NCBI GenBank assembly: GCA_964399475.1
Contig: CAYNRB010000001.1
Span: forward strand, 1 to 53,998
Direction: 5' to 3'
From: an uncultured Methylomarinum sp.
GTDB taxonomy: Bacteria > Pseudomonadota > Gammaproteobacteria > Methylococcales > Methylomonadaceae
Length of the DNA: 53,998 bases
The notes under the pieces are model-generated. The model saw only the letters and a list, made by a program, of their open reading frames with translations, ran no database searches and was not told the DNA's origin. Shown here piece after piece: positions 27,533 through 53,811 of this stretch. The position numbers were made by a program, and so were the translations under genes. Positions within the stretch are counted from its first letter, which is position 1, and every line of letters starts with the position of its first letter.

Positions 27533-27548
27533 CCAACCTTCATTTATT

Positions 27549-28913: not shown

Positions 28914-28929
28914 CCTATCAGGAGATATA

Positions 28930-30186: not shown

Positions 30187-30214
30187 TCATCATTTTCGCT
30201 TACCTTCCGACAAT

Positions 30215-30712: not shown

Positions 30713-30748
30713 AAATGTATAAGAAAACTCAAATAACAGGAAATTACA

Positions 30749-36426: not shown

Positions 36427-36513
36427 AAGTTCAAGACCTTTTCTAAAAGTAACTCTATAATAAATGCCTACGCTGGATTCGTCTAGATAACTTTTATACT
36501 CAGGTACATAATC

Positions 36514-36834
36514 ATGCTAGATCTATTTCTCATCACACTCTTGCTATTAATTGGTTTTTATTGGTCCAATTCCATGAAAGCACGTGAAATTGCTTTTATC
36601 GCAGTAACCTCACACTGCCGAAAACTAGGCGTACAATTATTAGATGAATATGTTGCCTTGAATGGATTATGGTTTAAGGTAAATAGAGAAGGGGGAATTA
36701 GTGCTTGGCGATCCTATCTATTTGAATTCACTTCTACTGGAAATGATCGCTATAACGGTAAAATAATTATGCTAGGTGATAAAATATTAAATATTGAGAT
36801 GGATCCCTATAAAATTCTTGATGATGAATATTAA
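36514..36834 (+). CDS. DUF3301-like small membrane protein
   Basis: 106 aa. N-terminal TM, then the block AREIA...HC...LLD..VAL......R.......R.Y.FEF...G..RY.G typical of DUF3301. Confidence 0.55.
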   Translation: MLDLFLITLLLLIGFYWSNSMKAREIAFIAVTSHCRKLGVQLLDEYVALNGLWFKVNREGGISAWRSYLFEFTSTGNDRYNGKIIMLGDKILNIEMDPYKILDDEY

Positions 36835-36910
36835 TTTAGCATAATAATAGCCACTAACTTTCATATATTCAATGACTTACTAACTAGATCAATAGAAAAA
36901 CTGATTAGTT

Positions 36911-37117
36911 TGGTGGTTTGACGAAACAAAATCACCAACCTTGCTTGTCTTTTTGCTCCTGATCAAACGATCTTAATCGTTTCGTAGAAATGACTTTGCA
37001 CCTCTTGTGAAATAGTTCGGTCTAGGTCAGGATCCCCTAGGTAGAATAATACATGAGCAATTTTCAAGAAATAAAAATCCTGCGCAATCTTGGTAACTTT
37101 ATTCCGTCAAATCACCT
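36911..37117 (-). repeat. LHE copy in reverse orientation, degenerate and enlarged (about 205 bp)
   Basis: The reverse complement carries ACCAAGATTGCGCAGGATTTTT, CAAGAGGTGCAAAGTCATTTCTACGAAACG (loop homologue) and CAAAAAGACAAGCAAGGTT. Outer arms GGTGGTTTGACG / CGTCAAATCACC. Holds an extra ~45 bp insert. Confidence 0.65.
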
Positions 37118-37371
37118 TAGTAAAAAAAATCATCTTGTTGGTAAATTCCCAATTGTAATAGATATCATTTATTGTTCAGACAGAAAGTTAATTGCTTTTG
37201 GAATATAGAACGAAAAGCAAAAATATTCTATACACTTTCTGGTGATATACTCCCCTTGATCATATAAAAGTAAGTAATGTTTGATTCATAAAACCAACTA
37301 TTATTTAACAATCACTATTTTCTAATAGATTACAGTCTAAATCTTTAACATTAACTAATGATATTTTTACT

Positions 37372-37716
37372 ATGAGCAATAAAACTCGTCATACTAAAAC
37401 CTCTACCCAAACTCAGGATGAGGCATTAAAAGTTGCTAAGGCTACGCAACGCCCAGGACAAGCTAAAGAACAAACCAAACTAATTGCCCAGGGAATAGAA
37501 AAAGGAATCTATCATTATAAAAAACAACAAAAAGCTAAAGTAAGAATAATTAATAAAAAAAAACATAAAACTGGAAAGAATAACGATGATCAATTTCAAA
37601 CCAATCAACATTCATCTGAAGTAAATCCAAATTGCATGCGTTCATCTTTGCCATGGATACTATTAATTATCAGCTGGATAGGCTTTTTTATTCATTATTC
37701 TAAGGATTTATGGTGA
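37372..37716 (+). CDS. DUF2956-like small protein with C-terminal TM
   Basis: 114 aa. The block EALKVAKATQRPGQAKEQTKLIAQGIEKGIYHYKKQQKAK matches my memory of the DUF2956 consensus. C-terminal hydrophobic helix. Confidence 0.45.
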   Translation: MSNKTRHTKTSTQTQDEALKVAKATQRPGQAKEQTKLIAQGIEKGIYHYKKQQKAKVRIINKKKHKTGKNNDDQFQTNQHSSEVNPNCMRSSLPWILLIISWIGFFIHYSKDLW

Positions 37717-38086
37717 TAACTAATCTAACGAAAGTAGGCTTTTCATAAAATAAATACCCAGATGGAGTATTTCAAAGGAAGAAGAACATATGGAATTTAA
37801 CAATATCAATAGTCTCAAATTAACGTAAGTAACGATAAATTTCTCTTCCCTCTAGCTTAGATAAATCTAAAGCTATTCCCATTACTTTTAAAAATCATTA
37901 AAGTACACCTTCCATAAAAACTATCTAGAACTGAAGTATATGGATTAAATAACCTTCAGAACACAAAACAATCGCAATCTATTCCTTAAATTATTTCGAA
38001 GCTTCATAACTGAGTAATGGGTCAAGTGGCAATAGATACACTTGCATCTATTGCCACTATTTATAAGTATGTAATGTAAATTTGTA

Positions 38087-41000
38087 TTACTTTACTTTAT
38101 TACTAGTAAACCAGGGAGTACCATCTTTTTTCAAATACATTTTATGCATTTCTTGTTGAGTAAAAGGTCTGGATCCAATTCTACCAAAAACTGCAATTTG
38201 ACCGCCTGTTTCATCTACTGCTCGATCTCTATCTAAACCTTTAGACAAGGCTAATGCAATATTTGAAGTTGGATACGAAGCTATTAGTTCAGGCTTAGGT
38301 TCTGGGCTAAAGCCATAAAACTTAGGCTGACTATCCGGTGATGTTAGTTGCAATACTTTCAATCCATTTTTACCATCAGCAACATAACCAATCAAAGAAG
38401 CATTAGTAGAAGCGACAATAACATCTCTTGCATCATTGAGTTGACCATTAGCTGTAAACAACTGTAGCAGCTTAGGACTTTCTGGTTTTTCAACATTTAT
38501 GATAGCTAAACCCTGCGAGCCTGCTGCCACATAAGCATAGGTTCTAGCAACATAAATTCGATTCGCATCCGTTAAAGCAACCGAGACACCACTGATTAAT
38601 TTTGCTTTTTCAGGCGTTGTTACATCAATAACTTTAAAACCATCTGCATCGGTTACAAATAGATATCTAAATTGTAAAGCTGTAGATTTAGCATTATTCA
38701 AGGGTATCACTGCCGCAACTTTTGGCGATAGCGGCGAATCCAAATTGATAATAATCAAACCGACATCCGCTGTAATATAGGCATAATAGCCACCTAGCGT
38801 TATATGTTTAGCTCCTTTTAGAATATTATCCCCATTCCATGTTAATGCACGTGTAAGAAAGTTATTTCTCGCTTTTCCGTCCGACAATGTATTTACATCG
38901 GTCAGAATTAAGCCTTCTTCTGCATCAACAATAAAGGCATAGTTATAGATTGGATGGAAATCCTGTTCCTGATTCGTCTCATTCATCAATTTACTCATCG
39001 CTTCGGCAGAAAGACCATAGTTACTTTCATAGCGGCGTTGTGGATGAATGGGTTGATTGGTAGGTAAAGCCATACAAGTCGCATTTTTAGAACTTATATG
39101 AGTATCATGTCCCAATGGTGAAAATGGCGCCGTTATAATTCGTTGAGAAATACCTTTATTGGCAATACTGGCAACATCATAGACTCTAAATCCACCTGAG
39201 CCTTCGGCAACATATAAATATTCTCCGCGTAGTTGTAAGCAGCTTGCTACATCAGAACTATGACTATGTACTCTTTTTAAGACTTGTTTATTATTTTGAT
39301 GATCCTTATACCAATCAGGGTAAGCATATTTATGTAAATAGCTACCTATCACGGCTTGAGGTTCTTCCCACTCAGTTACTTGAATAGCTGATATACCACT
39401 TTCTGTTCCCACATAGGCATTATATCCAACAAAGTTTACAAAATTGGTACCCTGTAATAACAGTTGAGCCATGATTGCATTATTATCATTTTCTGCAGAT
39501 AAATGACAATCTTCACATTGTTTGGTTTCTGTTTTACGCGTTGTATGTGGAAAATTGGGGGCGAATGCCTGTGCACTAAAACCACTCGATGAAACTGGAG
39601 GTTGCTGGATATAAATCAGTTCCCTGTTTGCATTTCTGGATGAAAGTATCAAGGCTGAAGATGAACGCACAGGAACTATTCTATTGCCCTTAACCTGTCC
39701 ATGACGACCAATTTGAAACATTTGGTCACGAACTACTTGTGGATTATAAGTTGCGTAATTACGCGCTTCTCCACCTTCATAATGAAGTGTGTCTGTTTTC
39801 CAGTTTGCCTGAATAGGTAAATGACAACCGGCACAACTGGTCACCCACGAACTATGACAAGTAAAGCAGGTCATATTTTCATTTTTATGAGCTCTATCTT
39901 CAGGAGCTACATCGGTTCCCCAAGCTAATGTCTCTGAATTTTTCGATACTAATTTTGCTCGAGCTGCTTTGGCATTATAGGTGGTATGAGCAGGATTAAC
40001 GGTATCTTTGACTAGACTCAGCTCCCATTCCTTATCACTAAATAAGGCAGAACGTTGATACAACTTATTGCCACGCCATTCAAATCGTAATTTACCATCC
40101 TGATTCCTTAATGTAGAAAGATCAGTACCACCAATTGCAGCAGCAGGGCCACTGGTTCTTAAATTTGGATAGGCATCAGCTGTACCATGACAATCTATGC
40201 AATCAACTTCTATTGCTGCTGCTACTTCACCATATAAATGACCATTGCCATGCGAATCTTGAGCAAAGTGACAATCTACACAGTGCATCCCTACGTCCAT
40301 GTGAATAGATGACAGATGAACAGCTTTATTGAATTTTTCTGGATCAGTATCACTGACTTCATTACCTGATGCATCTAATAAGGTACCTTTACGATCACGC
40401 TTAAAAACTGCTCTAAAATTCCAGCCATGTCCGTGATAGTCTGCAAATTGAGTGTCTTTAAGCTTAGGATTCAAATCGGAAACATTTTTGACAAATTCAA
40501 GGTCTTTCCATTTACCTCTTGCTGCTGCTTCCTCAGGATTCCTTTCATTGATTTTTCTGACTTCCGCATGACTCAAAATTTGCTCAGGATCTGGGTTTGC
40601 TCCTGCTCTTACTTGATCACTATTCAAATATCTTTGCTTTTCAGGCCACATATGCGGCGCATCCGATTCATAATCCCACATCGTATAACCCATGAAACTA
40701 TTTACAAAAATATTAGGTTGATGCATATGACAAATCATACATTGACTGGTCGGAATTGCTCTGGTGAATTGATGTTTAATAGGATGTCCCGACTCATTTT
40801 TAGAAATAGTCGGATCTATGGTCTGAGTTTTTCCTGAATGTCCAGCTTTGGCATAAGGACCAGAATGTTTTGGATCCCGATCATTTGCATAGACTACGTG
40901 ACAAGACCCACAACCTGATGTTCGATAATCTCCAGGTTGATCATTGGTCCCTAAAAACCATGTAAAAGGATCATTAAGACGAGTTTTGTGTATGTTAAGA

Positions 41001-41878
41001 ACGGGAACTGAAATTCGTCCACCGGTACCAGAACCTCGATTAGATTGCTTAATATCTGGACGACCCGGCTCTTCAAGTCGTTGAATCAAACCTAAGGCAT
41101 TAGGCAACCCAGTCTCAGGAAATAAATTAGTTATATTACGCCCACCTGCTTCAAAGACTCTGAAAACATCACCCTGTGGCATGTTTTCCCATCTTGGCAA
41201 CGGAATTAATGCAGGTACAATCCCTTTAGCGATCATATTTTCATCAGGTTCATGTGGATTAACCAACTTCTTGGGTAATCCTTCGCGCGTATATGATTCG
41301 CCCATAAAATAGCGTTTATATGGAACAATTCCATTATTGTATGCAGCTCCGCCCCACAACATAGCACCGGTAGCCATTAAACTTCTTTCAGATGCTTCAA
41401 TTATCTTCATATGGCATGCACCACATGACTCTCTTACAATCCGATAATCACTAGGATTAACAAAACGAATATATTCTGGTGATTCTCTATTCAAAAGGGT
41501 AAAACTATGCTTTGGATTCGCACTACTGGGATAATTCCACTCATTTGGTAAAGTAGGGATGACATGTGCTTTATTCATTGAAAGCTGGTATTCCAAATCT
41601 TTATCTGCACTGTTTTCCGGCTTAAACTCATCAGCGTTACCACCATGACAATCTACGCAACCCAAAGGCACTGCTTCAGTTTGATGCATAGATTGACTGT
41701 CTGTTTCGATATGACAACTCAAACAACCTCTAGACTTGGCATCAACTGCTTGCGGATCTTGGAATTGAGGTGCAATCAATGTTGAAGAATCTTTATCAAC
41801 ATCAAAAGCAGCATATCCGTTTATTGATACCAATAGGAATGCTATAAAAGAAAATATAATCAGCTTACATTTATTCAT
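38087..41878 (-). CDS. secreted decahaem c-type cytochrome fused to a C-terminal LVIVD-repeat beta-propeller
   Basis: 1263 aa with a signal peptide (IIFSFIAFLLVSINGYAA). Ten CxxCH motifs at aa 52, 74, 152, 323, 380, 533, 560, 671, 682 and 788. Residues ~880-1185 carry at least six LVIVD-like repeats (YLYVAEGSGGFRVYDV, YAFIVDAEEGLILTDV, YAYITADVGLIIINLDSP, YLFVTDADGFKVIDVTTP, YAYVAAGSQGLAIINVEKP, IGYVADGKNGLKVLQLTSP). Confidence 0.85.
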   Translation of the reverse strand: MNKCKLIIFSFIAFLLVSINGYAAFDVDKDSSTLIAPQFQDPQAVDAKSRGCLSCHIETDSQSMHQTEAVPLGCVDCHGGNADEFKPENSADKDLEYQLSMNKAHVIPTLPNEWNYPSSANPKHSFTLLNRESPEYIRFVNPSDYRIVRESCGACHMKIIEASERSLMATGAMLWGGAAYNNGIVPYKRYFMGESYTREGLPKKLVNPHEPDENMIAKGIVPALIPLPRWENMPQGDVFRVFEAGGRNITNLFPETGLPNALGLIQRLEEPGRPDIKQSNRGSGTGGRISVPVLNIHKTRLNDPFTWFLGTNDQPGDYRTSGCGSCHVVYANDRDPKHSGPYAKAGHSGKTQTIDPTISKNESGHPIKHQFTRAIPTSQCMICHMHQPNIFVNSFMGYTMWDYESDAPHMWPEKQRYLNSDQVRAGANPDPEQILSHAEVRKINERNPEEAAARGKWKDLEFVKNVSDLNPKLKDTQFADYHGHGWNFRAVFKRDRKGTLLDASGNEVSDTDPEKFNKAVHLSSIHMDVGMHCVDCHFAQDSHGNGHLYGEVAAAIEVDCIDCHGTADAYPNLRTSGPAAAIGGTDLSTLRNQDGKLRFEWRGNKLYQRSALFSDKEWELSLVKDTVNPAHTTYNAKAARAKLVSKNSETLAWGTDVAPEDRAHKNENMTCFTCHSSWVTSCAGCHLPIQANWKTDTLHYEGGEARNYATYNPQVVRDQMFQIGRHGQVKGNRIVPVRSSSALILSSRNANRELIYIQQPPVSSSGFSAQAFAPNFPHTTRKTETKQCEDCHLSAENDNNAIMAQLLLQGTNFVNFVGYNAYVGTESGISAIQVTEWEEPQAVIGSYLHKYAYPDWYKDHQNNKQVLKRVHSHSSDVASCLQLRGEYLYVAEGSGGFRVYDVASIANKGISQRIITAPFSPLGHDTHISSKNATCMALPTNQPIHPQRRYESNYGLSAEAMSKLMNETNQEQDFHPIYNYAFIVDAEEGLILTDVNTLSDGKARNNFLTRALTWNGDNILKGAKHITLGGYYAYITADVGLIIINLDSPLSPKVAAVIPLNNAKSTALQFRYLFVTDADGFKVIDVTTPEKAKLISGVSVALTDANRIYVARTYAYVAAGSQGLAIINVEKPESPKLLQLFTANGQLNDARDVIVASTNASLIGYVADGKNGLKVLQLTSPDSQPKFYGFSPEPKPELIASYPTSNIALALSKGLDRDRAVDETGGQIAVFGRIGSRPFTQQEMHKMYLKKDGTPWFTSNKVK

Positions 41879-41929: not shown

Positions 41930-43768
41930 TTAGTATGTGAGTATTAAATTACCCAAAACAGAATATAGTGTTTTATTACCATATAAATCTTTTAGGGCAT
42001 CTCCAGGGACTAAAGCCGCACCTGATAGTCGAAAAACAATATTCTGACTAAACTTAGGCCTATATATAGCAGAAACAGATAAGTCCCAGCCTATATCCGA
42101 GCTGATGCTGCCCTGATTCCTGGCAACTTCAAGCACATTTGTCTCATCAAAATAGAGTTTGTTAAAGTTTGTTGAAAGTCGAAATTCGGGTAAAATATCC
42201 ATATCGGTTCCAAGACCTATTAACACTATCCCCGGATTGGTAAAGTTTGACTGACCTTGATCTTTTGAAGATTCTAGTGAATTTAATATGCCATTTCTAC
42301 CAGATAGGGCAACACCTCCACCTCCTATAAAAGGCACGGCTTGCCTGATCCAAAAGCTACTATCAGCTCCAGCAAACTGAGGGTTTTCAACTATCGCATC
42401 ATAACCATTTGACTTGTTATCAAAGGCATCATCATCACCTGACGCATATAATCCAGACAACCTGACCCGTATCCAATCAAAATCCATGGACAGTTCACCG
42501 GCAAAAAAGTAAGCATCTATTTCACTTTCATCTACATTATATAAACCAGTCGTTTCATCTCCAAATAGATAATATCCAGATACAGTCAGATTGACCCGCC
42601 CAAAATGACCATCTCCATTAAAGCCCGCGTAATAGGCATCATAATCTCGGCCGATTTCATTTCCAATTGAAGCAGGTCTGACTAAAAATCCATTATCGTC
42701 GAAGAAACTATTATTTGCTTCTCTATTTCGGTTATAAGCAAAAGTTAGTTGAGACGTAAATCCACGTACCGGAAAATCTTGACGAAAAATATTTCCAAAG
42801 AAAACTTGATCATCTCGCAAGTCTTCAGAAATATCATTTAAACCGCTATTGGTATCTTTTTCGTGTCGCCAGATTGCAGCTAAATTGTATTGCCATAAAT
42901 TGTTATCCCATGTACCAAACAATCGAGCACCTAATTGTATATCCTGGAACAGGAAGCCTCTGAAATCTAAGGAAAAAGGCTGAATACCCACTCTGATACT
43001 ATTAAAATCATACCGATCAGAACTATTGTTTATATGATAATCTACAAATAGTTCTTGTATCGCAATATGACCATCTTCACGATCAGTACCTTCGCGCGGA
43101 TCTATATTCAAAAAACGCCGCTCCTCCACATCTGTGTAGTTATAATTAAACACAGGTGTAATACGAAATTCAAAATCTGGTGGTCTAAAAACTGTGTCAC
43201 CTTTGAAAAACACAAAAGCAACAATTAAATTTTGATTAAATAAGTACTGATCCTGAGAACCAAATACATCTATATCACCAGCGCTTGCAGTGGTTTGATT
43301 ACCATTTGGCGTAGGTATAAGCCTGTATTCACCAATCGTATCTGATATTACTGATACATTAGCAAACCAGTCATCAAAAATAGGTCTGTCACTTTTAATC
43401 AAATTCCGGTTATAGGGATCCAGAAAGCCTTCTTTTATGCCAATTGCATCCGCAATTCTCCAGCGATCAGGAACCGGTATAAATGTTTCAGGATAAAGAC
43501 CTTTTAATGCAGGAATCCGTTGAAGTCCACTTTTTCTGTTTGGGTCGGCAAGTTCAACGACTTCTGCTTCACTAACTGCAGTTGCACCAGGTCTGATACG
43601 CCTTCTTTCTCCACTCCCTTCATTTGAAGCATTCTCAGAAACGATATCTTGTTCAGCCACTACTGCAATTCCAGCATTTACAGTTGGTAAATAACACCAG
43701 CTGCTAGCTAATAATGTCAAGGCGACAGAACCTATAAAAGGTTTTTTATTATTTTCCACTGCATGCAT
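41930..43768 (-). CDS. putative large outer-membrane beta-barrel protein
   Basis: 612 aa. Signal peptide (SVALTLLASSWCYLPTVNA), pervasive alternating aromatic/polar beta-strand patterning, and a C-terminal ...LGNLILTY aromatic terminus typical of BAM substrates. Its start overlaps the upstream gene by 20 nt. Confidence 0.6.
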   Translation of the reverse strand: MHAVENNKKPFIGSVALTLLASSWCYLPTVNAGIAVVAEQDIVSENASNEGSGERRRIRPGATAVSEAEVVELADPNRKSGLQRIPALKGLYPETFIPVPDRWRIADAIGIKEGFLDPYNRNLIKSDRPIFDDWFANVSVISDTIGEYRLIPTPNGNQTTASAGDIDVFGSQDQYLFNQNLIVAFVFFKGDTVFRPPDFEFRITPVFNYNYTDVEERRFLNIDPREGTDREDGHIAIQELFVDYHINNSSDRYDFNSIRVGIQPFSLDFRGFLFQDIQLGARLFGTWDNNLWQYNLAAIWRHEKDTNSGLNDISEDLRDDQVFFGNIFRQDFPVRGFTSQLTFAYNRNREANNSFFDDNGFLVRPASIGNEIGRDYDAYYAGFNGDGHFGRVNLTVSGYYLFGDETTGLYNVDESEIDAYFFAGELSMDFDWIRVRLSGLYASGDDDAFDNKSNGYDAIVENPQFAGADSSFWIRQAVPFIGGGGVALSGRNGILNSLESSKDQGQSNFTNPGIVLIGLGTDMDILPEFRLSTNFNKLYFDETNVLEVARNQGSISSDIGWDLSVSAIYRPKFSQNIVFRLSGAALVPGDALKDLYGNKTLYSVLGNLILTY

Positions 43769-45740
43769 TTTGTTTACCTGAATTTAAAAATGGCTTATAA
43801 GGACATTGAACATAACGTAATCTAACACCAGCGAGTACTAAATTATCTGCGCGAATTTCAGGAGGTGCATTATTTACAGTATTAATTAGCTTACCTGCAT
43901 TATGCACGCCTAAAAAGGAAATCAAATCATCCTGATCAATACCATCACCTGAAACACCCAAGCCACCGATTAAGGTATTACCACGATAGACTGGAACGCT
44001 TCCTGGGAAAATCTGTATTCCATTTCTTAACTCTGGTATGGGCTGACCTACAGTAAAGTTCTGAATTCCCAAAAAGTTAGCAATAAAGTTTAATGTAGCG
44101 GGAGGGGAAGCTGTACAATCTTGTCCGATATCGGGAGCTAAGCCATAAAATGCAGCGACATGAGTCAACATACCATTAATAACCAGATCTAATTGTAATC
44201 CAGTTGAAAAAGGGCTCCATTCTGGAAAAGGCTTGCTAAAAGGGCCATTTTGAGCCCGTTGAAGACCATCAGGGAAAAACGGTCGAGATAAATTTCCACC
44301 GGCTCTATCTGTGAATGCAACTGCACCGGTCAAAACATTAGGATCATTGAATAAAGTAATTGTAGCATCGACATAACTGCTAATGGGAAAGCCAATTGCT
44401 TGACCTGGAAAACTAACATAAACAGCATCAGAAGCTGAATTCAATTTGTCTTGAGCGTCGCTCTTTGAAAAAAACATTGCTGTTCGTGCCTTTTGTAAGG
44501 ACACATCGGTACCAAATATTGGAGCATCTCGAGTTCGAACAACCCCTAGAATATCACCTTGGGTATCCACCAACGAAACTGTAACGCGAGCTTGAGAGTT
44601 AAAGGGTTGACGAATCTGCGCCCTGGCACTATTTGCAACTGCTATTGCACTGCGTAATAAAGCTAAGGATTCATCTCGGCTTATTCCTACACCCGCACGA
44701 ACAGGAAATCTTTCTTGGTTTGCATTATCAACTAGTACGAAAGCATCCAATCCAGCATAATCATTAGATGCCGGCCTTATTCCAGAATTTACCTCACCAA
44801 AAGCAGTACCTGCCAAAACCTGACCATCAAAATAGACAGGAACAGGGATAAGTAAACCTTTACCTGCTATTTGGGATAAATCCGAAAGTACATTAGAAAC
44901 CGTTTGAGTTTTTAAGTTTTTATATCGAATATCAGAATATCGTAGAGACTTACCTTCAACAGTAATACGATCAGCCCGATTTTTTCTGGAAGATTCAAAT
45001 CCTAAGGTTCCAGCAAGTGCAACCCGTTCATCAATAATATTATCCCGATCTCTAATATTAAGATCAGCACCATAAATTAAATCAGTCTCAACGCCAATCC
45101 CCCCAACTAAAGCTCCGTCTTTGTATAATGGAAAGCCACCAGGATCAGCAGAAAGCCCTAATGGAGAACGTTTAGGTCCAACATCTGCACCCGATGAAAA
45201 TCGCGTAACTAAATCTGAACAAGCAAGTGAACTAAATTGCACACCAAACAGTGGCCCTGCTGGTTGATTAAATTCCTGAGGGTTAAAATTCTGCATAATG
45301 ATATGACTTGCAGTACGCGTAGAAAACGCATTGCCTTCTGAAGAAAGATAGGCACCGGTAATTGCTTTGGCAATAGCTGATAGACTAGCTGGAATAACCC
45401 CTTTTATCCCATCCAAACCGGTCATAACGTTTCTTCCACCGTTTATCTCGATTCTTGGAAAAAAAGCATTATTTGGAAAAGGACCATTCATTTGATAAAC
45501 AGCCAATACATTTCCAACTCTATCAGTTACTGAAATTGTAGAGAATACACCCGCTATTTCAGACTCTTGTACAGCCTGAACAATAATCCGTCTAACATCA
45601 CTTTCTGTTAAGAAACTATTCGCTGTTGAGCAAAAGCCTGTACAACCATCCTTCGCAGAAATCTGAGGTGAAAATGATAAACAATTTGCTAGAAACACAA
45701 AACTTGCTATTAATTTTAGATTATATCTTTTCTTTTTCAT
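43749..45740 (-). CDS. secreted protein with two GlcG/HbpS-like (DUF336, haem-binding) domains
   Basis: 663 aa with a signal peptide. Two copies of the GlcG pattern: (1) VRRIIVQAVQES...ISVTDRVGNVLAVYQMNG ... AKAITGAY ... GGFPLYKDGALVGGIGVE; (2) LLRSAIAVANSA...TVSLVDTQGDILGVVRTRDA...SLQKARTAMFF ... FPGSVPVYRGNTLIGGLGVSGDGIDQDD. Confidence 0.6.
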   Translation of the reverse strand: MKKKRYNLKLIASFVFLANCLSFSPQISAKDGCTGFCSTANSFLTESDVRRIIVQAVQESEIAGVFSTISVTDRVGNVLAVYQMNGPFPNNAFFPRIEINGGRNVMTGLDGIKGVIPASLSAIAKAITGAYLSSEGNAFSTRTASHIIMQNFNPQEFNQPAGPLFGVQFSSLACSDLVTRFSSGADVGPKRSPLGLSADPGGFPLYKDGALVGGIGVETDLIYGADLNIRDRDNIIDERVALAGTLGFESSRKNRADRITVEGKSLRYSDIRYKNLKTQTVSNVLSDLSQIAGKGLLIPVPVYFDGQVLAGTAFGEVNSGIRPASNDYAGLDAFVLVDNANQERFPVRAGVGISRDESLALLRSAIAVANSARAQIRQPFNSQARVTVSLVDTQGDILGVVRTRDAPIFGTDVSLQKARTAMFFSKSDAQDKLNSASDAVYVSFPGQAIGFPISSYVDATITLFNDPNVLTGAVAFTDRAGGNLSRPFFPDGLQRAQNGPFSKPFPEWSPFSTGLQLDLVINGMLTHVAAFYGLAPDIGQDCTASPPATLNFIANFLGIQNFTVGQPIPELRNGIQIFPGSVPVYRGNTLIGGLGVSGDGIDQDDLISFLGVHNAGKLINTVNNAPPEIRADNLVLAGVRLRYVQCPYKPFLNSGKQNACSGK

Positions 45741-46375: not shown

Positions 46376-46559
46376 TTGTCTATCCTCTCCTGTTTAAATA
46401 AACATTTAAAGTAATTAATACCATATTATTTTAGATTTGCACAATCATTTTTTAATAAAATGCATTAATTTTTAAATGATTTCGATTAAATCTTAGTATG
46501 ATTCCAACTAAAATTATAAGTAATTAATCTTTACAACTGATTTAATTTAATCACGCAAC

Positions 46560-46606
46560 TTAATTAAACATATTTTAATTATTTTAATTATTTTAATTAA
46601 ACATAC
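46560..46606. repeat. direct repeat TTAATTAAACATA (x2) flanking three tandem ATTTTAATT units
   Basis: Read directly at 46560-46572 and 46594-46606, with the 9-mers between them. Lies inside the 785-bp AT-rich divergent spacer. Confidence 0.7.
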
Positions 46607-47160
46607 TTTAATTATTTAATTAAGTCGTATATATCTTGGTGTTATTATTTAACTTAAGATGCTGTAAAATATATATATTTTATTTTTACCATTAAATATT
46701 CTATACTATATAGATCGTCAGATTTACTTTCAATTGAGTAGAATCAAGTACTCTTGTCCAAAAAGCGATATTATAAAACTCTATTAATATAATTGATTTC
46801 AAATATTTCCCCTTTTGACTTATTTAAAAAGCCGCATTGTCTACAGTAAAATTATTTATTAATGATTTTTAGTAAAAAATTTTTAGTTTCCAAATTTGAT
46901 AATGTTGAACTATGTCCTTGTACATAAGAAAATCTTTAATATATTAGTAATTAATAATATTGTATTGTTATAAAATTATTAAATCTAATAATTAATTCGC
47001 CTGGTAATTATTTTAGATTAATTTCATTAATAACTTGGCTTTATTTGAAAATAAATATATATTTAGACCATACATCTACCAGACTATACATAGTTACTTG
47101 TATTTGAATTTATGTTTATTCAATACATTTTGCTACTAAACCAGTTATTAGGGGAATAAA

Positions 47161-48504
47161 ATGGCTTCAACAGTTAATTTGATTAAAGGCTGCATCTTTT
47201 TTTCATTTTTGTTTTTTCAAATAGCTATTTCTGAAGCAGCCAGTACAGCTATTCCCCAATTCGCAGACAACATCCATTTAGGTGTTGCAACATGTGCAGG
47301 GAGCGCATGTCATGGCTCTTCAGAACCCTTTGACACCTCCACCGTATTACAAAATGAATATCTCACTTGGCAACGCCACGACAAACACTCCAAAGCCTAT
47401 AAAGTTCTTTTCAATGATAGATCTAAAAGAATTGCTCGCAATTTAGGCCTAAAAGCAGCTCATACCGCGAAAATTTGCCTGGATTGCCATACTGATAATG
47501 TAGCTAAAGATAAACGTGGGCGCCGTTTTCAATTATCTGACGGTATTGGTTGTGAAGCTTGTCACGGTGGCGCTGAAAAATATTTAGGCCCACATGTCTC
47601 TGGATTAGCCACACATCAAGAAAATATCGACAATGGACTCTACCCTACTGAAAATCCAATCCAGAGAGCAAAACTTTGCCTTTCATGCCACTTAGGTACC
47701 AATAGCCAATTTGCAACCCATGACATTATGGGAGCGGGTCATCCACGAATTAACTTTGAATTGGATACCTATACTGCAACATCACCCGCCCACTATAAAG
47801 TCGACAAAGATTACCGAGAGAGAAAAGTAGTCTGGAGCCATGCTAGAACATGGGCTGTTGGTCAAGCAATGGCCGTTCAACAATATCTTAATCTTCTTAC
47901 CTCGCCAAAACGGCTAAAAAACGGCCTATTTCCAGAACTTGCTGTATTTGAATGTTATGCCTGCCATCAATCTATGAATGGTCAACGCTGGCAAAAACGT
48001 GAATCCAGTGACATAGGACCCGGAAATATTCGACTTCAGGAAAGCAATATTCTGATGATGAAACATATTGCTAAAGTTATTGACCCTAGCCTTGCCAGTT
48101 CTTTGCATACCAAAACTTTAAATCTTCATCAAGCCAGCACACAAAGCATCCCAAGCATTGTCAGTGCCGCAAAAGAACTAAAAGTATTGAATAGACAGCT
48201 AATTAATAAAATTGCCAGTACAAGTTTTTCTAGCGCAATTATTAACAAAGTACTTTCCAGCATCATCAATGATGGGATTAAAGGCAATTACTTTGATTAC
48301 GCAAGTGCCGAACAAAGTTTAATGGCAATTGAAGCATTAGCAACAACTTTAGCCAACGCCCGTGCGATTGATTTTTCAAGTTCCAGCCCTTTAGCTAAAA
48401 GCATTGATAAACTCTACGTGCTATTAGTAAATGATGATAATTTTTCTCCAAGCTCATTTGCTAGCGAATTAAAACAAATACAAACTAACCTTTCTATAAA
48501 ATAG
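47161..48504 (+). CDS. periplasmic multihaem (4x CxxCH + 1x CxxxxCH) c-type cytochrome with a non-haem helical C-terminal half
   Basis: 447 aa with a signal peptide (CIFFSFLFFQIAISEA). Motifs CAGSACH, CLDCH, CEACH, CLSCH and CYACH all lie in the first ~270 aa. AGGGG RBS. Confidence 0.8.
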   Translation: MASTVNLIKGCIFFSFLFFQIAISEAASTAIPQFADNIHLGVATCAGSACHGSSEPFDTSTVLQNEYLTWQRHDKHSKAYKVLFNDRSKRIARNLGLKAAHTAKICLDCHTDNVAKDKRGRRFQLSDGIGCEACHGGAEKYLGPHVSGLATHQENIDNGLYPTENPIQRAKLCLSCHLGTNSQFATHDIMGAGHPRINFELDTYTATSPAHYKVDKDYRERKVVWSHARTWAVGQAMAVQQYLNLLTSPKRLKNGLFPELAVFECYACHQSMNGQRWQKRESSDIGPGNIRLQESNILMMKHIAKVIDPSLASSLHTKTLNLHQASTQSIPSIVSAAKELKVLNRQLINKIASTSFSSAIINKVLSSIINDGIKGNYFDYASAEQSLMAIEALATTLANARAIDFSSSSPLAKSIDKLYVLLVNDDNFSPSSFASELKQIQTNLSIK

Positions 48505-48691: not shown

Positions 48692-51100
48692 ATGTCAGAT
48701 TCAAAACATTACAATATAGTTATCATTGGTTCTGGCCCCGGCGGAATGAGTGCTGCGGGTCGTGCTCAGGAAGCAGGTTTAAATTATATTTTACTTGAAG
48801 CCACAAGCCACCTATCCTATACCATTCACCTTTATCAAAAAGGTAAACACGTCATGGATGAACCGACTATTTTGCCTTTACGCAGTACCTTCGGGTTTAC
48901 AGCCGAATCTCGAGAGGAAATATTAGGTAAATGGGAAGATAAAATAAAATCCCTCAATGTTAATATTCAGTACGACTCCTATGTCGAAACAATTTCTGGT
49001 GAATCAGGAAATTTCACCATTAATATCAAAGGTGGGGAAGTAATAACTGCCGATAAAATTGTGCTTGGAATCGGGCTTCAAGGTAATCTTCGCAAAATGG
49101 GAGTAGAAGGTGAAGATTTACCTTTTGTACAATATCAACTGGATGACCCTGAAGAATATGAAGATGAAACGATTGTGGTTATTGGAGCGGGTGATGCAGC
49201 CATAGAAAATGCCATTGCTTTAGCAAAACAAAATAACGTTATTATCGTAAACCGAAAGAATGAGTTTGCACGAGCAAAAAAGGGCAATCTTAATGGCATT
49301 ACTAGAGCGATAGAAACCGAAACTTTAGAATGCTACTACAATTCAACCAGTGAATGCGTTAAAGCCCTTGATCAACCAGGTGAAAATGGAGAAAAAGGTG
49401 TTTTAGTTCTCAATACTGATGAGGGAACCACTGAAATACCTATACATCGAATCATTGCTCGCTTAGGTGCAATCCCTCCCAGACGATTTGTTGAAGCTTG
49501 TGGAATTGTTTTTCCTAGTAAGGATCCTGCGGCAGTTCCTGCTATCAGTGAAACCTATGAATCAAATGTTCCTGGCTTGCATATAGTCGGTGCTTTAGGC
49601 GGAAATCCTCTGATTAAAGCAGCCATGAACCAAGGCTATGAGGTCATTGAACACATTCAAGGCAACCCAATCGCACCAGCGGATGAGCCACTCTTAAAAG
49701 ACAAGTTTTCTAACCTTGATGCCAGCTTGTCGGTTAGCCAATTACTTGCCCAACTCTATAGCGCTTTACCATTCCTCCAATCATTAACTAAATTACAATT
49801 TAGAGAATTCATTTTAGACAGTGAGATAAGATTACCTCAACCAGGCGAGACCATATATGCAATCAATGATTTCAGTAACTCCTTCTATTCTATTATCACA
49901 GGTCAAGTCGATTTAATTTCTACCGCTGGAGAACGTGATCAGAAATCTACACTACAAAATGGTGATTTTTTTGGTGAATGGAGCTTAATATCGGGTCGCC
50001 GACGTTCTGATACCGCTATTGCCGGTAATAACTGCTTATTAATCGAAAGCGGTCGTAGAATGATGAAAAAACAAATCAGCTCGGATCCTTCCATAGCCGA
50101 TGCGATCAATAAAGTTTTCATCATGCGTGCAGTACAAACTCATCTTGCGCCTGGTGTTCCTCAAGCATTACTCAAAAAATACTTGAATCGAGCAGATATT
50201 GCTTATTTCAAACCCGGTGATTTCTTGCAGAAAGAAGGGGAATCTTGTAGTACCTTTCATATAATACGCTCTGGATCAGTTACGGTTTCACGCAAAGTAT
50301 CTGGCAAAGAAGTCTTAATTTCGTATATGCCTGTGGGTGAATTTCTGGGAGAAATGGCCATACTCAGTGGCAATGCTTGCATGACAACCGCTACGGCTAC
50401 TGTCGCAACTGAAACCATTAGTCTTGATGCCAGCATTTTTACCGAGATGATGAATGATGTTCCTCAAGTTGCACAACTAATTGAAAGCACTTTACAAGAA
50501 CGCCTTAGGGATTATGTACAACTACAAAATCATCCTGAACGAGGTGCAGCAATCTCATTTATGATGCAACAGGGCTTAGGTGAAGCAACCGATGTTCTGG
50601 TTATTGACGAATCATTATGCGTACAATGCGATAACTGCGAAAAAGCCTGTGCGGAAACCCACAACGGCACTTCTCGATTAGATCGTGAAGCTGGCCCCAC
50701 CTATGCCTCACTCCATATTCCAACATCTTGCCGACATTGTGAACAACCACACTGTATGAAAGATTGCCCTCCTGATGCCATTCATCGAGCAAATAATGGT
50801 GAAGTCTTTATTGACCAAAGTTGTATAGGATGTGGTAATTGCCAGCAGAACTGTCCCTACGGTGTCATACAAATGGCAAAATCCGGAACCAAAACCACCA
50901 ATCTTTTTCAATGGCTAGTACTTGGTAAAGGTTCGGCACCCGGAGAAAAAGCAACCCATTTTGATGCTGATGTTCAAAAGAAAGCGGTTAAATGTGATAT
51001 GTGTAAAGATTTACCCGGCGGACAAGCCTGCGTTAGAGCCTGTCCAACGGGTGCTGCAATTCGCATAAATCCTGAACAACTTATTGAATTAACCATATAA
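48692..51100 (+). CDS. cytoplasmic fusion oxidoreductase: FAD/NAD(P)-binding pyridine-nucleotide-disulfide-type domain + two cyclic-nucleotide-binding domains + four-cluster [4Fe-4S] ferredoxin domain
   Basis: 802 aa with no signal peptide. Rossmann motifs IVIIGSGPGGMSAAGRA and IVVIGAGDAAIENA. cNMP-like blocks FFGEWSLISGRRRSDTAIA and FLGEMAILSGNACMTTATA. Cys groups CVQCDNCEKAC, CRHCEQPHCMKDCP, CIGCGNCQQNCP and CDMC..x7..CVRACP (DmsB/NrfC-like spacing). Confidence 0.8.
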   Translation: MSDSKHYNIVIIGSGPGGMSAAGRAQEAGLNYILLEATSHLSYTIHLYQKGKHVMDEPTILPLRSTFGFTAESREEILGKWEDKIKSLNVNIQYDSYVETISGESGNFTINIKGGEVITADKIVLGIGLQGNLRKMGVEGEDLPFVQYQLDDPEEYEDETIVVIGAGDAAIENAIALAKQNNVIIVNRKNEFARAKKGNLNGITRAIETETLECYYNSTSECVKALDQPGENGEKGVLVLNTDEGTTEIPIHRIIARLGAIPPRRFVEACGIVFPSKDPAAVPAISETYESNVPGLHIVGALGGNPLIKAAMNQGYEVIEHIQGNPIAPADEPLLKDKFSNLDASLSVSQLLAQLYSALPFLQSLTKLQFREFILDSEIRLPQPGETIYAINDFSNSFYSIITGQVDLISTAGERDQKSTLQNGDFFGEWSLISGRRRSDTAIAGNNCLLIESGRRMMKKQISSDPSIADAINKVFIMRAVQTHLAPGVPQALLKKYLNRADIAYFKPGDFLQKEGESCSTFHIIRSGSVTVSRKVSGKEVLISYMPVGEFLGEMAILSGNACMTTATATVATETISLDASIFTEMMNDVPQVAQLIESTLQERLRDYVQLQNHPERGAAISFMMQQGLGEATDVLVIDESLCVQCDNCEKACAETHNGTSRLDREAGPTYASLHIPTSCRHCEQPHCMKDCPPDAIHRANNGEVFIDQSCIGCGNCQQNCPYGVIQMAKSGTKTTNLFQWLVLGKGSAPGEKATHFDADVQKKAVKCDMCKDLPGGQACVRACPTGAAIRINPEQLIELTI

Positions 51101-51120: not shown

Positions 51121-52059
51121 ATGCAAGAATCATTTCTGAATTATGAACGTTTCCGTTACTTAAAGCTGGCTGTAGCTGTTTCATTGCTTTCCCTTATTCT
51201 GTATATATTTCATGATCCAGGTGTTGCACCGCCAAATGGAGGCACTTGGTTAGGCTACTTGTTAGGTAGTATTTCGGCGGGAATTATCTTTTTACTGCTT
51301 TGGTTTGGTATCAGAAAACGCCGATATTCCTCAACAGCTGGTACAGTAAAAGGCTGGTTATCTGCACATATATACCTTGGCATCGCATTAATTTTTGTTG
51401 GAACGCTTCATACTGGATTTCAATTTGGCTGGAATGTCCACACGCTAGCCTATACATTAATGATTCTAGTTATTCTAAGTGGATTCTATGGATTATATGT
51501 TTATATCCGTTATCCAACCATGCTTAATACCCATAGAAATGGAATAAATCGCTTGGAAATGCTTAAGGAAATTAATGAACTGGATGAACTGTCACTCTCC
51601 ATTGCCAATAACGAATTAAGTCCAAAAATTCATGAAGTTATCTTGCGTTCTATCGAAAAAACTCGAATAGGTACCTCTGTCTGGCAACAATTGACTGCAA
51701 TGGAATACGGCTCTGACCCCTTTGAAGGTGTTGAAAAAATGTTAGCAGATTATCAACAAGGTGTGCAAAGTGAAACCTTAATGCTGGACAGCAATCAGCA
51801 ATCAGGTAACTCAACTAACTCACAAGCTACCATGATGTATATCAGTAATGCCTTGAATGTGATTGACTCGGATCAGCTTGAATCCGTACGAAGATTACTG
51901 GAAGCCGTGGGAAGAAAAAAATCATTAGTCAAACAAGTTAGACGTGATATCCAGTTAAAAGCAACCATCCAGTTCTGGCTATATATTCATATTCCACTTT
52001 CACTAGCTTTATTTGCTGCATTAATCATCCATATATTTAGCGTTTTCTTTTATTGGTAA
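51121..52059 (+). CDS. integral membrane protein, candidate dihaem b-type transmembrane electron carrier
   Basis: 312 aa with about 5 TM helices and a ~150-aa soluble insert. TM3 reads H83-x13-H97 (HIYLGIALIFVGTLH) and TM5 reads H290-x13-H304 (HIPLSLALFAALIIH). Confidence 0.5.
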   Translation: MQESFLNYERFRYLKLAVAVSLLSLILYIFHDPGVAPPNGGTWLGYLLGSISAGIIFLLLWFGIRKRRYSSTAGTVKGWLSAHIYLGIALIFVGTLHTGFQFGWNVHTLAYTLMILVILSGFYGLYVYIRYPTMLNTHRNGINRLEMLKEINELDELSLSIANNELSPKIHEVILRSIEKTRIGTSVWQQLTAMEYGSDPFEGVEKMLADYQQGVQSETLMLDSNQQSGNSTNSQATMMYISNALNVIDSDQLESVRRLLEAVGRKKSLVKQVRRDIQLKATIQFWLYIHIPLSLALFAALIIHIFSVFFYW

Positions 52060-52065: not shown

Positions 52066-53811
52066 ATGAAATGTCTTGTAAATTATATTACTCGCCGTAA
52101 AAACGGTAATATTAGTACTAAATCAAAAGAAGTTGATGCCAACAGCATTGGTATTGGACGTGCTACTGACCAGGAAATTTTCTTATCAGATCTTCGTATT
52201 GCTTATAAACATGCTGAAATAGTTCTGCTTGAAGGAAAATACTACATCAAATCCCTGGCTTTATCTGGCATTAGACTGAACAATGCCATTACTTCATCAG
52301 TTTTGTTGACACCAGGCGTTGTCGTACAAATAGGAAACTACGAACTTAAAGTTATTGAAAAACCGGGTTATGACCTCGTTGTGGAACTTGAACAAGTCAC
52401 CACAAGTGAAGTTCTAAATGACCAAATAAAATTAGAGTCAAAACTGGATTTAAATCAAACAAAATTAAACAAGCGCCTTCTATCCTGGATAGGTTTTGCT
52501 ACGATATTTGTACTGTTTTTTATTCTCCCTTTAAGTTCTTCATTATTTCAACCGATTAAAGACATTAGCTCTAAAATTCCGCTTATACCAACCGATGCGG
52601 CATGGAAATCAGGCTCCATGGCATCTGTACATCATTTTTTCAAAAATGACTGTCGCTCTTGCCATCAAGATGCATTTGTTCAAGTTAAAGATGAAGCCTG
52701 TACTAGTTGCCATAAAGATACCCACATACATGCCAACGATAACTTAATGGTCAATCAAAATTTAAATAATATCGCTTGTCAGGATTGCCATAAGGAACAC
52801 AATGGAACTGACGGGATGATTATGCCTTCATCCAATAATTTCTGTAGTGATTGCCATGCAGATTTAAAAGAAACATTAGCAGATAAAACTAAATTACTAG
52901 ATGCTAGTGATTTTGGCGATGACCATCCTGAGTTTAGAGCCTCTATCCCTTATTCTAAGTTTGGCAAAAAGAGATTTTCTCGTATATCTATGGATAATAC
53001 TGAGAAACTTAAAGAAAAAAATGCGGTGGTTTTTTCTCATAAAGCTCATTTACAACCTTATTTTCCAGCCAGATTTAAAGAATTGACTAAAAATGGTGCT
53101 GAAAAAATGGCATGTATGGACTGCCACGTTCCTGATAGTGGTGGGAAACGCATGATTCCCATCAATTTTGAAGACAACTGTGAGAGCTGTCATAAGCTGG
53201 AAATTGGCAAAAAACAAGCTCGTTTAAAATTACCACATGAGGCAACAACTGAAGTCTATTATTATATAGAACAGTATTATAAGTCACTTGCCCTTGATGG
53301 CGGCATAACCGATACTGAAACCCCAACAGGTTTGAGAACCAGACGACGAGCAGGCCAAGCCATTTCTTCTGAGGAAAGATTAGTTGCATTAAACTGGGCT
53401 TCAAAAAAATCTAAGCAAGTTGCTGAAGAAATTTTTAACTACACGCTTTGTAAAACCTGCCATATAGTAACCAGCTCTGAGAATGCAACACCTCCTTGGA
53501 ACATTTCAGCCGTTTACACACCAGACTTATGGTTTCCAAAAGCAAATTTCACCCATTCCAAACATACAACCATGGAATGCTTAGATTGTCATAATGTAGA
53601 GCAGTCTGAAGTAGGCGAAGATGTTTTGATGCCCAAAATCGCTGATTGCCGAAGTTGTCACGCTGGGGCTCATAATGATGAATTATTGGCTTCTGGATGT
53701 ATTGATTGCCATAGCTTTCATATTGGAAAAGAACTACTTGCTCCTCCTGCACCTACTATTGTAGAACTGAAAGCTACTGGTAATGAAGCTGAAGAAGTAA
53801 TAATAGAATAG
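52066..53811 (+). CDS. FHA domain - single TM - decahaem c-type cytochrome fusion protein
   Basis: 581 aa. N-terminal FHA-like block (IGIGRATDQEIFLSDLRIAYKHAEIVLLEGKYYIKSLALSGIRLNN). TM at aa 138-160 (LSWIGFATIFVLFFILPLSSSLF). Ten CxxCH motifs follow: CRSCH, CTSCH, CQDCH, CSDCH, CMDCH, CESCH, CKTCH, CLDCH, CRSCH, CIDCH. Confidence 0.85.
   Translation: MKCLVNYITRRKNGNISTKSKEVDANSIGIGRATDQEIFLSDLRIAYKHAEIVLLEGKYYIKSLALSGIRLNNAITSSVLLTPGVVVQIGNYELKVIEKPGYDLVVELEQVTTSEVLNDQIKLESKLDLNQTKLNKRLLSWIGFATIFVLFFILPLSSSLFQPIKDISSKIPLIPTDAAWKSGSMASVHHFFKNDCRSCHQDAFVQVKDEACTSCHKDTHIHANDNLMVNQNLNNIACQDCHKEHNGTDGMIMPSSNNFCSDCHADLKETLADKTKLLDASDFGDDHPEFRASIPYSKFGKKRFSRISMDNTEKLKEKNAVVFSHKAHLQPYFPARFKELTKNGAEKMACMDCHVPDSGGKRMIPINFEDNCESCHKLEIGKKQARLKLPHEATTEVYYYIEQYYKSLALDGGITDTETPTGLRTRRRAGQAISSEERLVALNWASKKSKQVAEEIFNYTLCKTCHIVTSSENATPPWNISAVYTPDLWFPKANFTHSKHTTMECLDCHNVEQSEVGEDVLMPKIADCRSCHAGAHNDELLASGCIDCHSFHIGKELLAPPAPTIVELKATGNEAEEVIIE

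Follow-up and report, generated by a model that had tools for sequence, protein, structure and literature searches.

What is the role of a protein that joins a flavin module, two cyclic-nucleotide-binding (CNB) domains and an iron-sulfur (FeS) domain in one chain, and whose gene lies among genes for multihaem cytochromes? The question is raised by a gene on a 53,998-nt stretch of DNA from an uncultured Methylomarinum sp. (assembly GCA_964399475.1, contig CAYNRB010000001.1, positions 1 to 53,998; hereafter, the window). An original prediction, made from the sequence alone, had taken its product, here called the fusion protein, for the cyclic-nucleotide-gated cytoplasmic entry point of an adjacent membrane and cytochrome system. 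The architecture, cofactor motifs, conservation, synteny and natural gene fusions described below are observed. On this footing we propose that the fusion protein is probably the cytoplasmic NAD(P)H-oxidizing input subunit of a conserved, quinone-independent electron conduit that spans the cell envelope.

Modules of the fusion protein

The open reading frame (ORF) starts with ATG, is the longest in its frame and encodes 802 amino acids; coordinates of all features are collected in Table 1. Alignments with homologs begin at residues 1–5. When only Pfam calls above gathering thresholds were counted, the Pyr_redox, cNMP_binding and Fer4 families were all found, so that the ORF call and the domain search together confirm a single polypeptide with flavin, two cyclic-nucleotide and FeS modules. 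No signal peptide or hydrophobic segment was found in the sequence, and the chain opens straight away with the first Rossmann strand (β1-GSGPGG). The protein is therefore cytoplasmic, and the predicted lack of a Tat or Sec signal is borne out. The full-length protein is covered by no solved structure and no curated family; its AlphaFold model has a pLDDT of 72.9.

The fusion architecture is not rare but defines a family of thousands. A word-indexed search returned 4670 proteins at E ≤ 1e-10, and the best 120 of these matches are all about 800 amino acids long and 55–85% identical to the query. An exhaustive search of 50%-identity representatives yielded 763 proteins at E ≤ 1e-30; full-length members were among them at identities as low as 32%. 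A scan of one genome per species detected relatives in at least 554 species. These are Gamma-, Alpha- and Betaproteobacteria, and most belong to the Lysobacterales, Nevskiales, Methylococcales, Rhodospirillales and Burkholderiales. Family members carry only generic database names (“cyclic nucleotide-binding domain-containing protein”), and the nearest named relative comes from a metagenome-assembled genome of Methyloprofundus sp. Since the matches include cultured hosts (Dokdonella immobilis, Tahibacter soli, T. harae, Pseudomarimonas arenosa, Solimonas and Zavarzinia), genetic work on the system is feasible.

The N-terminal module matches Pyr_redox_3 (100.7 bits, residues 10–300) and Pyr_redox_2 (77.1 bits, residues 7–315), and both of its Rossmann motifs are nearly invariant across the family. 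Foldseek, run with the AlphaFold model, returned thioredoxin reductases (TrxR) at E values of about 1e-20. The nearest solved relatives in sequence and model searches are the bacillithiol disulfide reductase Bdr/YpdA (7a7b) and TrxR-type ferredoxin-NADP+ reductases (FNRs; 2zbw, 5ygq, 3ab1, 3lzw and 6gar). The earlier description of this module as thioredoxin-reductase-like thus stands for the fold but not for the disulfide chemistry. The region corresponding to the TrxR CxxC motif (residues 120–152) contains no Cys in 32 of 32 family members; in a residue-level alignment, the CAVC of TrxR falls opposite Q-LD, and the Cys of the Bdr motif GGGPCG falls opposite Gly17 of GSGPGG. Two assignments were rejected on these grounds. 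A true thioredoxin reductase shares the fold but has the CxxC motif, and the NCBIfam TrxB model (TIGR01292) scores 65.3 bits against a cut-off of 343.45. For a Bdr/YpdA enzyme, the characteristic Cys is absent and the score is 103.6 bits against a cut-off of 339.9 (TIGR04018). All curated cut-offs of the TrxR-type and Bdr families are missed widely.

The two-Rossmann TrxR fold without CxxC is what the module has in common with the TrxR-type FNRs of B. subtilis (YumC, 3lzw), C. tepidum (3ab1) and R. palustris (5ygq) and with Bdr/YpdA. Unlike these FNRs, the fusion protein carries its FeS acceptor in cis, with the two CNB domains in between. In TrxR, the HRR..R motif holds the 2′-phosphate of NADPH. 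Since this motif aligns with N187-R188-K189...R194 of the fusion protein, where R188 and R194 are invariant, the sequence suggests NADPH as the likely donor.

At the C terminus, residues 636–800 match Fer4_11 (44 bits, threshold 26.2), Fer4_7 (46.2 bits), Fer4_9 and further families. Sixteen Cys residues form four groups: 643/646/649/653 (CxxCxxCxxxC), 680/683/688/692 (CxxCx4CxxxC), 711/714/717/721 (CxxCxxCxxxC) and 768/771/780/784 (CxxCx8CxxxC). None of the 16 varies in the alignment, and each intact full-length representative listed has them all, even at 32% identity; they would be enough for four [4Fe-4S] clusters. The best sequence match in the PDB is HycB (7z0s_B, 2.6e-17). Of the earlier label “DmsB/NrfC-like with four Cys groups,” the four groups hold, but the nearest kin are of the cytoplasmic type (HycB, HycB3/4 of HDCR and HydN), with the Tat-exported DmsB and NrfC further away. 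Curated scores are below the cut-offs for DmsB (58.2 against 214.1), NrfC (40 against 377.6) and HydN (50.3 against 260). With these scores and the absent signal peptide, a periplasmic subunit of the DmsB/NrfC kind was rejected.

A 16-Cys polyferredoxin between a catalytic module and a membrane partner is known from FdnH-FdnI, HybA, HycB, HydN and the N terminus of AegA/YgfT. Unlike FdnH, the fusion protein is cytoplasmic and would feed its membrane partner from the opposite, cytoplasmic face, and unlike the FdnH-type subunits generally, it has a flavin dehydrogenase of its own in the same chain. In AegA, the domain order is reversed and the flavoprotein is of the GltD type.

Between the redox modules, cNMP_binding (PF00027) matches with 99.1 bits (threshold 27.5) in two stretches, at about residues 378–470 (CNB-A) and 502–590 (CNB-B). 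The strings quoted in the original prediction, FFGEWSLISGRRRSDTA and FLGEMAILSGNACMTTA, lie at residues 426–442 and 551–567, and the tandem-CNB structures 3of1 and 6rsx cover residues 383–598. In CNB-A the phosphate-binding cassette is complete (G428, E429, R438, S439 and T441), with Asp440 in place of Ala. In CNB-B, G553 and E554 are retained, while Arg-Ser is replaced by Cys563-Met564, a change that had been masked by dots in the previously quoted motif. The cassette Arg is thus present in the first domain and missing from the second, and the claim of cyclic-nucleotide gating survives for CNB-A only: CNB-A looks like the one domain competent to bind a cyclic nucleotide, and gating of the window protein through it is plausible from its sequence.

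Conservation of the cassettes was counted among 123 full-length family members. G428 is found in 122, E429 in 121 and R438 in 107 of them; the corresponding CNB-B positions are kept in 118 (G553), 105 (E554) and 106 (Arg563). Such conservation makes nucleotide control probable for most of the family. Loss of the CNB-B Arg is common to the nearest relatives of the window protein, which have Cys or Ser instead, and in several lineages, the cluster-linked P0132 among them, the cassette of one or both domains is degenerate. Since cluster-linked lineages with lost cassettes exist, nucleotide gating is not essential to the core function. Within the window, a search found no gene for a nucleotide cyclase.

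These losses bear on a serious, if unlikely, alternative, in which the CNB domains are not cyclic-nucleotide switches but spacers, dimerization modules or sensors of another ligand or of redox state (with Cys563 as one possible sensing site). That would leave the enzyme constitutive, or under the control of FHA domains and Ser/Thr phosphorylation; only regulation is at issue, and the idea is compatible with the proposed input role. Repeated degeneration of the cassettes while the redox motifs are conserved fits this alternative, as do the Cys or Ser at the Arg site in the window protein and its closest relatives and the lack of a cyclase gene, and CNB folds of the CRP/FNR type do bind haem, 2-oxoglutarate and other ligands. 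Against it, CNB-A has every canonical contact, and purifying selection on the cassette Arg in more than 100 of 123 members, in either domain, is hard to explain without nucleotide binding.

Cys563 (window positions 50376–50384 encode residues 562–564) lies exactly at the site of the phosphate-binding Arg of CNB-B. The same Cys occupies this position in P0002 (85% identity) and P0005 (60% identity). It could be a thiol-based, redox-sensitive substitute for nucleotide sensing, or plain decay.

The tandem arrangement resembles that of the regulatory subunits of protein kinase A, and the bacterial cAMP-regulated acetyltransferase Pat offers the principle of allosteric control of an enzyme fused to a CNB domain; in the fusion protein, by comparison, CNB-B is degenerate. 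Literature searches for a cNMP-domain oxidoreductase or a cNMP-FeS fusion found nothing relevant, and we know of no characterized oxidoreductase that is regulated by a CNB domain.

Linkage to a predicted dihaem membrane protein and multihaem cytochromes

The gene context was compared across 82 related loci. The conserved order, with all genes codirectional, is the fusion gene; TM312, a five-helix inner-membrane protein; FHA-MHC, an FHA-domain multihaem cytochrome; an HbpS-like protein; p612, a predicted outer-membrane barrel; and p1263, a secreted cytochrome. By tblastn, the fusion gene was found in all 82 loci, TM312 in 73, FHA-MHC in 67, the HbpS-like gene in 47, p612 in 45 and p1263 in 42, and most of the absences coincide with contig ends. 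Where at least 9 kb of downstream sequence was available, all five partners were present in 36 of 46 loci. Median gaps at the ORF level are 18.5 nt between the fusion gene and TM312 and 9 nt between TM312 and FHA-MHC. The order is shared by Gamma-, Alpha- and Betaproteobacteria, and linkage is kept at 40–42% identity of the fusion protein (L085 and L086). In the window, 20 nt separate the end of the fusion gene from the start of TM312, and the half of the cluster that encodes the HbpS-like protein, p612 and p1263 is inverted, on the minus strand just upstream of the fusion gene.

Natural fusions point the same way. P0126 (1110 amino acids) consists of the fusion protein followed by a full-length TM312 homolog (E = 7e-60), and its gene lies directly upstream of one for an FHA-like multihaem cytochrome; it is known from one contig only and may be an assembly or annotation artefact. 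P0249 and P0258 (about 970 amino acids) have, besides Fer4 and Pyr_redox_3 modules, a TM312-like membrane domain at the C terminus; in P0249 this domain matches Pfam Ferric_reduct (PF01794) weakly. P0258, which additionally has a cNMP domain, was recovered from two independent samples. In P0133 (1134 amino acids), two FHA domains similar to a stand-alone FHA protein of the window precede the fusion protein. Read at the sequence level, these fusions would make a physical link from the soluble flavo-FeS protein to the dihaem module of the membrane as well as to FHA domains. Tight and taxonomically broad synteny, together with the fusions to TM312, backs the earlier placement of the protein at the cytoplasmic end of the adjacent membrane and cytochrome system, and its role as the cytoplasmic entry point is well supported by gene context.

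The same evidence decides against a soluble, stand-alone regulated oxidoreductase, a fused FNR-ferredoxin that would serve a cytoplasmic acceptor and be a neighbor of the cytochrome genes without functional significance. What speaks for such an enzyme are full-length homologs at 35–36% identity (L083, L087 and L088), orphans without cytochrome partners that lie beside rpoD or riboflavin-synthesis genes. Synteny in three proteobacterial classes with gaps of a few nucleotides, and fusion to the membrane protein, make this explanation very improbable. Since the orphans exist, the fusion architecture also serves another cytoplasmic role.

TM312 spans the membrane with five transmembrane (TM) helices, and about 150 of its residues form a helical insert in the cytoplasm. 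Its motifs are W79-x3-H83-x13-H97 on TM3, S120-G-x-x-G124 on TM4 and W286-x3-H290-x13-H304 on TM5. Over 69 orthologs, W79, H83, H97 and H107 are conserved in 100%, W286, H290 and H304 in 97%, and S120, G121 and G124 in 96–100%. By the positive-inside rule, H83/H290 lie towards the cytoplasm and H97/H304 towards the periplasm, a geometry from which a transmembrane dihaem cytochrome b is predicted. All Pfam matches of TM312 are below threshold, including those to prokaryotic cytochrome b561 (PF01292), which occur in 41 of 49 family members. Some family members are labelled “Ferric reductase like transmembrane component” in UniRef. Foldseek returned nothing at E < 0.1 from the PDB, and a PDB profile search gave no significant match to a solved cytochrome b; in the Pfam, Foldseek and profile searches, TM312 reached neither the threshold of Ferric_reduct nor structural likeness to NADPH oxidase (NOX) or MsrQ.

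At its periplasmic membrane surface, TM312 has two further His residues, His107 (100% conserved) and His31 (87%), which could be ligands of a third haem or a point of contact with the decahaem cytochrome.

The next protein, FHA-MHC, has ten CXXCH motifs in 58 of 60 orthologs. Its FHA domain keeps the Gly-Arg and the His, the phosphate-contacting Ser and the Asn of the NG turn are absent in every family member, and the domain resembles the scaffolding FHA domain of YscD.

Direction of electron flow and relation to described clusters

In the proposed mechanism, NAD(P)H, probably NADPH, would reduce the FAD of the TrxR-fold module, which has no redox disulfide, and electrons would run down the four [4Fe-4S] clusters of the HycB-like domain. 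They would enter TM312 at its cytoplasmic-side haem b (H83/H290), cross the membrane to the periplasmic-side haem b (H97/H304), pass to the membrane-anchored decahaem FHA-MHC and move on, possibly through the c554-like and HbpS-like proteins, towards the p612 barrel and p1263. Lying between the flavin and the FeS wire, the tandem CNB domains would probably make electron delivery dependent on a cyclic nucleotide. Such a chain would bypass the quinone pool and conserve no energy; its logic would be that of NADPH oxidase or ferric reductase, in a bacterial version with the parts split up. It could plausibly serve to balance redox state when O2 is limiting, to acquire metals reductively or to let p1263 reduce an external or periplasmic substrate.

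Outward flow is favored on two counts. Reduction of NAD(P)+ from c-type haems, with electrons moving inward against the membrane potential, would be strongly uphill with no visible coupling device, and the conserved core has no quinol-oxidizing module. The second count also bears on the idea that the protein does not carry the bulk of the electrons but senses redox state and second messengers and so controls the conduit, for example by opening or closing TM312 in response to the cytoplasmic NAD(P)H level. Sensor-type domains are indeed many (two CNB domains, an FHA domain on a partner, a kinase and a phosphatase nearby), and another source of electrons for the cytochromes is conceivable in principle. 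Among the genes of the conserved core, however, none is for a quinol-oxidizing or other input module, and a four-cluster wire of about 40 Å, as in HycB and FdnH, is typical of conduits and not of sensors, so that we regard a pure sensor as quite improbable.

Clusters of a related kind have been described twice. He et al. (2017) defined the PCC3 and PCC4 clusters bioinformatically (PMC5566968). In the portions of that paper that describe PCC4, the inner-membrane protein comprises some 300 residues, with five TM helices, W-x3-H-x13-H on TM3 and TM5 and SGxxG on TM4; in subgroup II an Fe-S gene (pfam13247) lies immediately upstream of it, and a porin accompanies three periplasmic multihaem cytochromes with 4, 5 and 10 haems (PMC5566968). 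The same portions model PCC4 as inward flow to quinone, make no mention of flavin or cNMP modules in the Fe-S protein and list Oceanospirillum beijerinckii as having its Fe-S and membrane proteins jointly annotated, as in P0126 (PMC5566968). A 2026 preprint on Ferrigenium straubiae reports an FHA-nonahaem cytochrome with one TM helix, a protein of five TM helices “without redox motifs” and a [4Fe-4S] protein of the cytosol; it leaves the function of this trio open and does not report the flavin and cNMP modules (bioRxiv 10.64898/2026.01.22.701106).

TM312 matches the membrane-protein signature given for PCC4 exactly, the fusion protein carries Fer4_11 and is encoded directly upstream of TM312, as described for subgroup II (PMC5566968), and p612 has a β-signal and a weak porin match. 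A porin-type barrel and 5- and 10-haem cytochromes are shared with PCC4, a likeness by published description and not by sequence. Unlike the 4/5/10 haems described for PCC4, the window's cluster has 5/10/10 plus a β-propeller, and since the haem counts differ, we call it PCC4-like and not PCC4. No experimental follow-up of PCC4 was found in a literature search. The uet cluster of Tenderiales and the MtrAB-type cluster of Methylobacter were also considered and rejected as matches because their gene sets differ.

In the inward alternative, the conduit would take electrons from extracellular Fe(II) or Mn(II), and the fusion protein would be the sink from which they pass to NAD(P)+ or another acceptor in the cytoplasm. 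It was in Fe(II) oxidizers (Zetaproteobacteria, Hyphomicrobium and Ferrigenium) that related clusters first came to light, and they were modeled as electron uptake. TrxR-type FNRs are reversible enzymes. However, with c-type cytochromes or Fe(II) as the source, reaching NAD(P)+ (about −320 mV) against the membrane potential would be strongly uphill with no energy-coupling element in view, and most of the hosts found are aerobic heterotrophs or methanotrophs, not lithotrophs. We consider inward flow rather improbable.

Several points nevertheless weigh against the proposed NAD(P)H-fed export. In the parts of them that treat these clusters, both papers propose inward flow, from Fe(II) to quinone (PMC5566968; bioRxiv 10.64898/2026.01.22.701106). 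The cofactors, the donor and the direction of flow, as well as the ligand and the terminal acceptor, are what we infer from the sequences and their context. The FeS domain has a pLDDT below 50 in the AlphaFold2 model. To these are added points given above: the subthreshold Pfam matches of TM312 and its empty Foldseek and PDB profile searches, the orphan homologs, the CNB-B domain without its Arg, the lineages with degenerate cassettes and the lack of a cyclase gene.

The proposed system combines known kinds (an FNR-ferredoxin fusion, FdnH/FdnI-type wiring, NOX-like logic and porin-cytochrome clusters) and is not categorically new. Like members of the ferric-reductase-domain (NOX/FRE) superfamily, TM312 has two H-x13-H pairs, on TM3 and TM5, and the proposed order of NADPH, flavin, two bis-His haems b and an outside acceptor, with regulatory domains, would be that of NOX, FRE and SpNOX. 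The flavin module of NOX/FRE has an FNR fold, whereas that of the fusion protein has a TrxR fold; unlike in NOX/FRE, an FeS wire is added and the parts are on separate polypeptides. The acceptor would be a multihaem cytochrome chain and not, as in NOX/FRE, O2 or Fe(III) directly.

What is new is the identification of the cytoplasmic partner of PCC4-like clusters as an NAD(P)H-flavin/CNB/polyferredoxin protein, the dihaem signature in a membrane subunit earlier described as lacking redox motifs, and the suggestion of a widespread, quinone-independent and signal-gated route of electron export. The PCC4 and Ferrigenium clusters thereby gain a concrete, testable cytoplasmic partner and cofactor set. 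Tentatively, and with somewhat less than even confidence, we suggest that the family as a whole may be the entry module of widespread, unrecognized envelope-spanning export machines that draw on cytoplasmic NAD(P)H, bypass quinones and are switched by cyclic nucleotides and by FHA domains with Ser/Thr phosphorylation, a modular analogue of NADPH oxidase or ferric reductase built on multihaem cytochromes and a porin.

If this is true, at least 550 species would have such machines, aerobic methanotrophs and common soil Lysobacterales among them. To our knowledge, all well-studied Gram-negative extracellular electron-transfer chains (CymA, ImcH or CbcL, followed by Mtr or other porin-cytochrome complexes) have the quinol pool as their starting point. 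An NAD(P)H-fed conduit would be a different solution, in which no energy is conserved but reducing power is discharged fast. It would suit redox balancing under oxygen limitation, as in iron-reducing methanotrophs, reductive metal acquisition and detoxification, and the fusion protein would be the first oxidoreductase shown to be under the control of a CNB domain.

Outer components, candidate regulators and the rest of the window

The best-conserved member of the cluster is p1263, whose top 120 homologs are 65–83% identical across proteobacterial classes. Its family (at least 7999 matches) consists of proteins with 10 haems and an LVIVD β-propeller that lack Pfam matches over most of their length. 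It partly resembles the Geobacter cytochrome ExtM (1.6e-17, subthreshold); no named or solved relative was found, and PDB profile searches gave no significant match. p1263 likely acts as the cluster's catalytic or terminal component. The barrel protein p612 ends in a conserved C-terminal β-signal, ...VLGNLILT[YF]. The HbpS-like gene (43749–45740, minus strand) encodes 663 amino acids with three HbpS-like (GlcG/DUF336) stretches, of a kind that binds or degrades haem.

Homologs of the PP2C phosphatase and the FHA protein of the window flank the cluster in L003, and a kinase does so in L001. The FHA domains, together with the neighboring Ser/Thr kinase and phosphatase, suggest that control or docking has a second level.

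Table 1. Positions of the fusion protein, its modules, the cluster genes and adjacent candidate regulators in the window.
Feature	Position	Strand	Basis or remark
Flavo-iron-sulfur/tandem-CNB fusion protein	48692..51100	+	ORF, Pfam, thousands of full-length homologs
TrxR-fold FAD and NAD(P)H two-Rossmann module (residues 7–315)	48710..49636	+	motifs GSGPGG, GAGDAAIEN
CNB-A (about residues 378–470), canonical phosphate-binding cassette FFGE...RRRSDT	49823..50101	+	Pfam, alignment
CNB-B (about residues 502–590), degenerate cassette, Cys563-Met564 replacing Arg-Ser	50195..50461	+	Pfam, alignment
HycB/HydN-like polyferredoxin domain (residues 636–800)	50597..51091	+	16 invariant Cys, Pfam
TM312, 5-TM inner-membrane protein, predicted dihaem cytochrome b	51121..52059	+	motifs, topology
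FHA-MHC, cytoplasmic non-canonical FHA domain, one TM helix (136–165), periplasmic decahaem cytochrome c	52066..53811	+	Pfam, 10 CXXCH
Pentahaem cytochrome c554-like protein with signal peptide; variable accessory gene, 23/82 loci	47161..48504	+	precedes fusion gene
HbpS-like secreted protein or lipoprotein, conserved cluster member	43749..45740	−	three HbpS-like stretches
p612, predicted outer-membrane β-barrel	41930..43768	−	signal peptide, C-terminal β-signal, weak porin HMM (hidden Markov model) match
p1263, secreted 10-haem cytochrome with C-terminal LVIVD β-propeller	38087..41878	−	signal peptide, ten CXXCH
Ser/Thr kinase, 569 aa, candidate regulator	32970–34679	−	beside cluster
PP2C phosphatase, 266 aa, candidate regulator	34761–35561	+	beside cluster
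Stand-alone two-domain FHA protein, candidate regulator	35719–36426	−	first FHA motif fully canonical

A divergent intergenic region of 785 bp (46376–47160) lies between an OmpA-like gene and the c554-like gene. It is very AT-rich, contains short tandem repeats of the TTTTAATTA type and is presumably the shared regulatory region of both halves of the cluster. A promoter and terminator scan of 46.3–54 kb was uninformative, with sites no more numerous than in shuffled controls. Another low-GC stretch of 1.6 kb (36427–38086, about 32% GC) extends from the FHA protein gene to p1263 and holds only small ORFs (106 and 114 amino acids).

Two further blocks lie away from the cluster. Positions 25282–32422 hold genes of C1 metabolism and the serine cycle: malate dehydrogenase, an MtdB-like methylene-tetrahydromethanopterin dehydrogenase, glycerate kinase (DUF4147/MOFRL), serine hydroxymethyltransferase and formate-tetrahydrofolate ligase. 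By these genes the source, at about 38% GC, is recognizable as a methylotroph or methanotroph. A flagellar filament locus occupies 3338–14697 on the minus strand, with three flagellin genes and FliD, FlaG, FliS and MotY nearby. Two of the flagellins are giant, at 858 amino acids (4698–7274) and 1363 amino acids (10606–14697); in both, the conserved N- and C-terminal helices enclose a very large central region.

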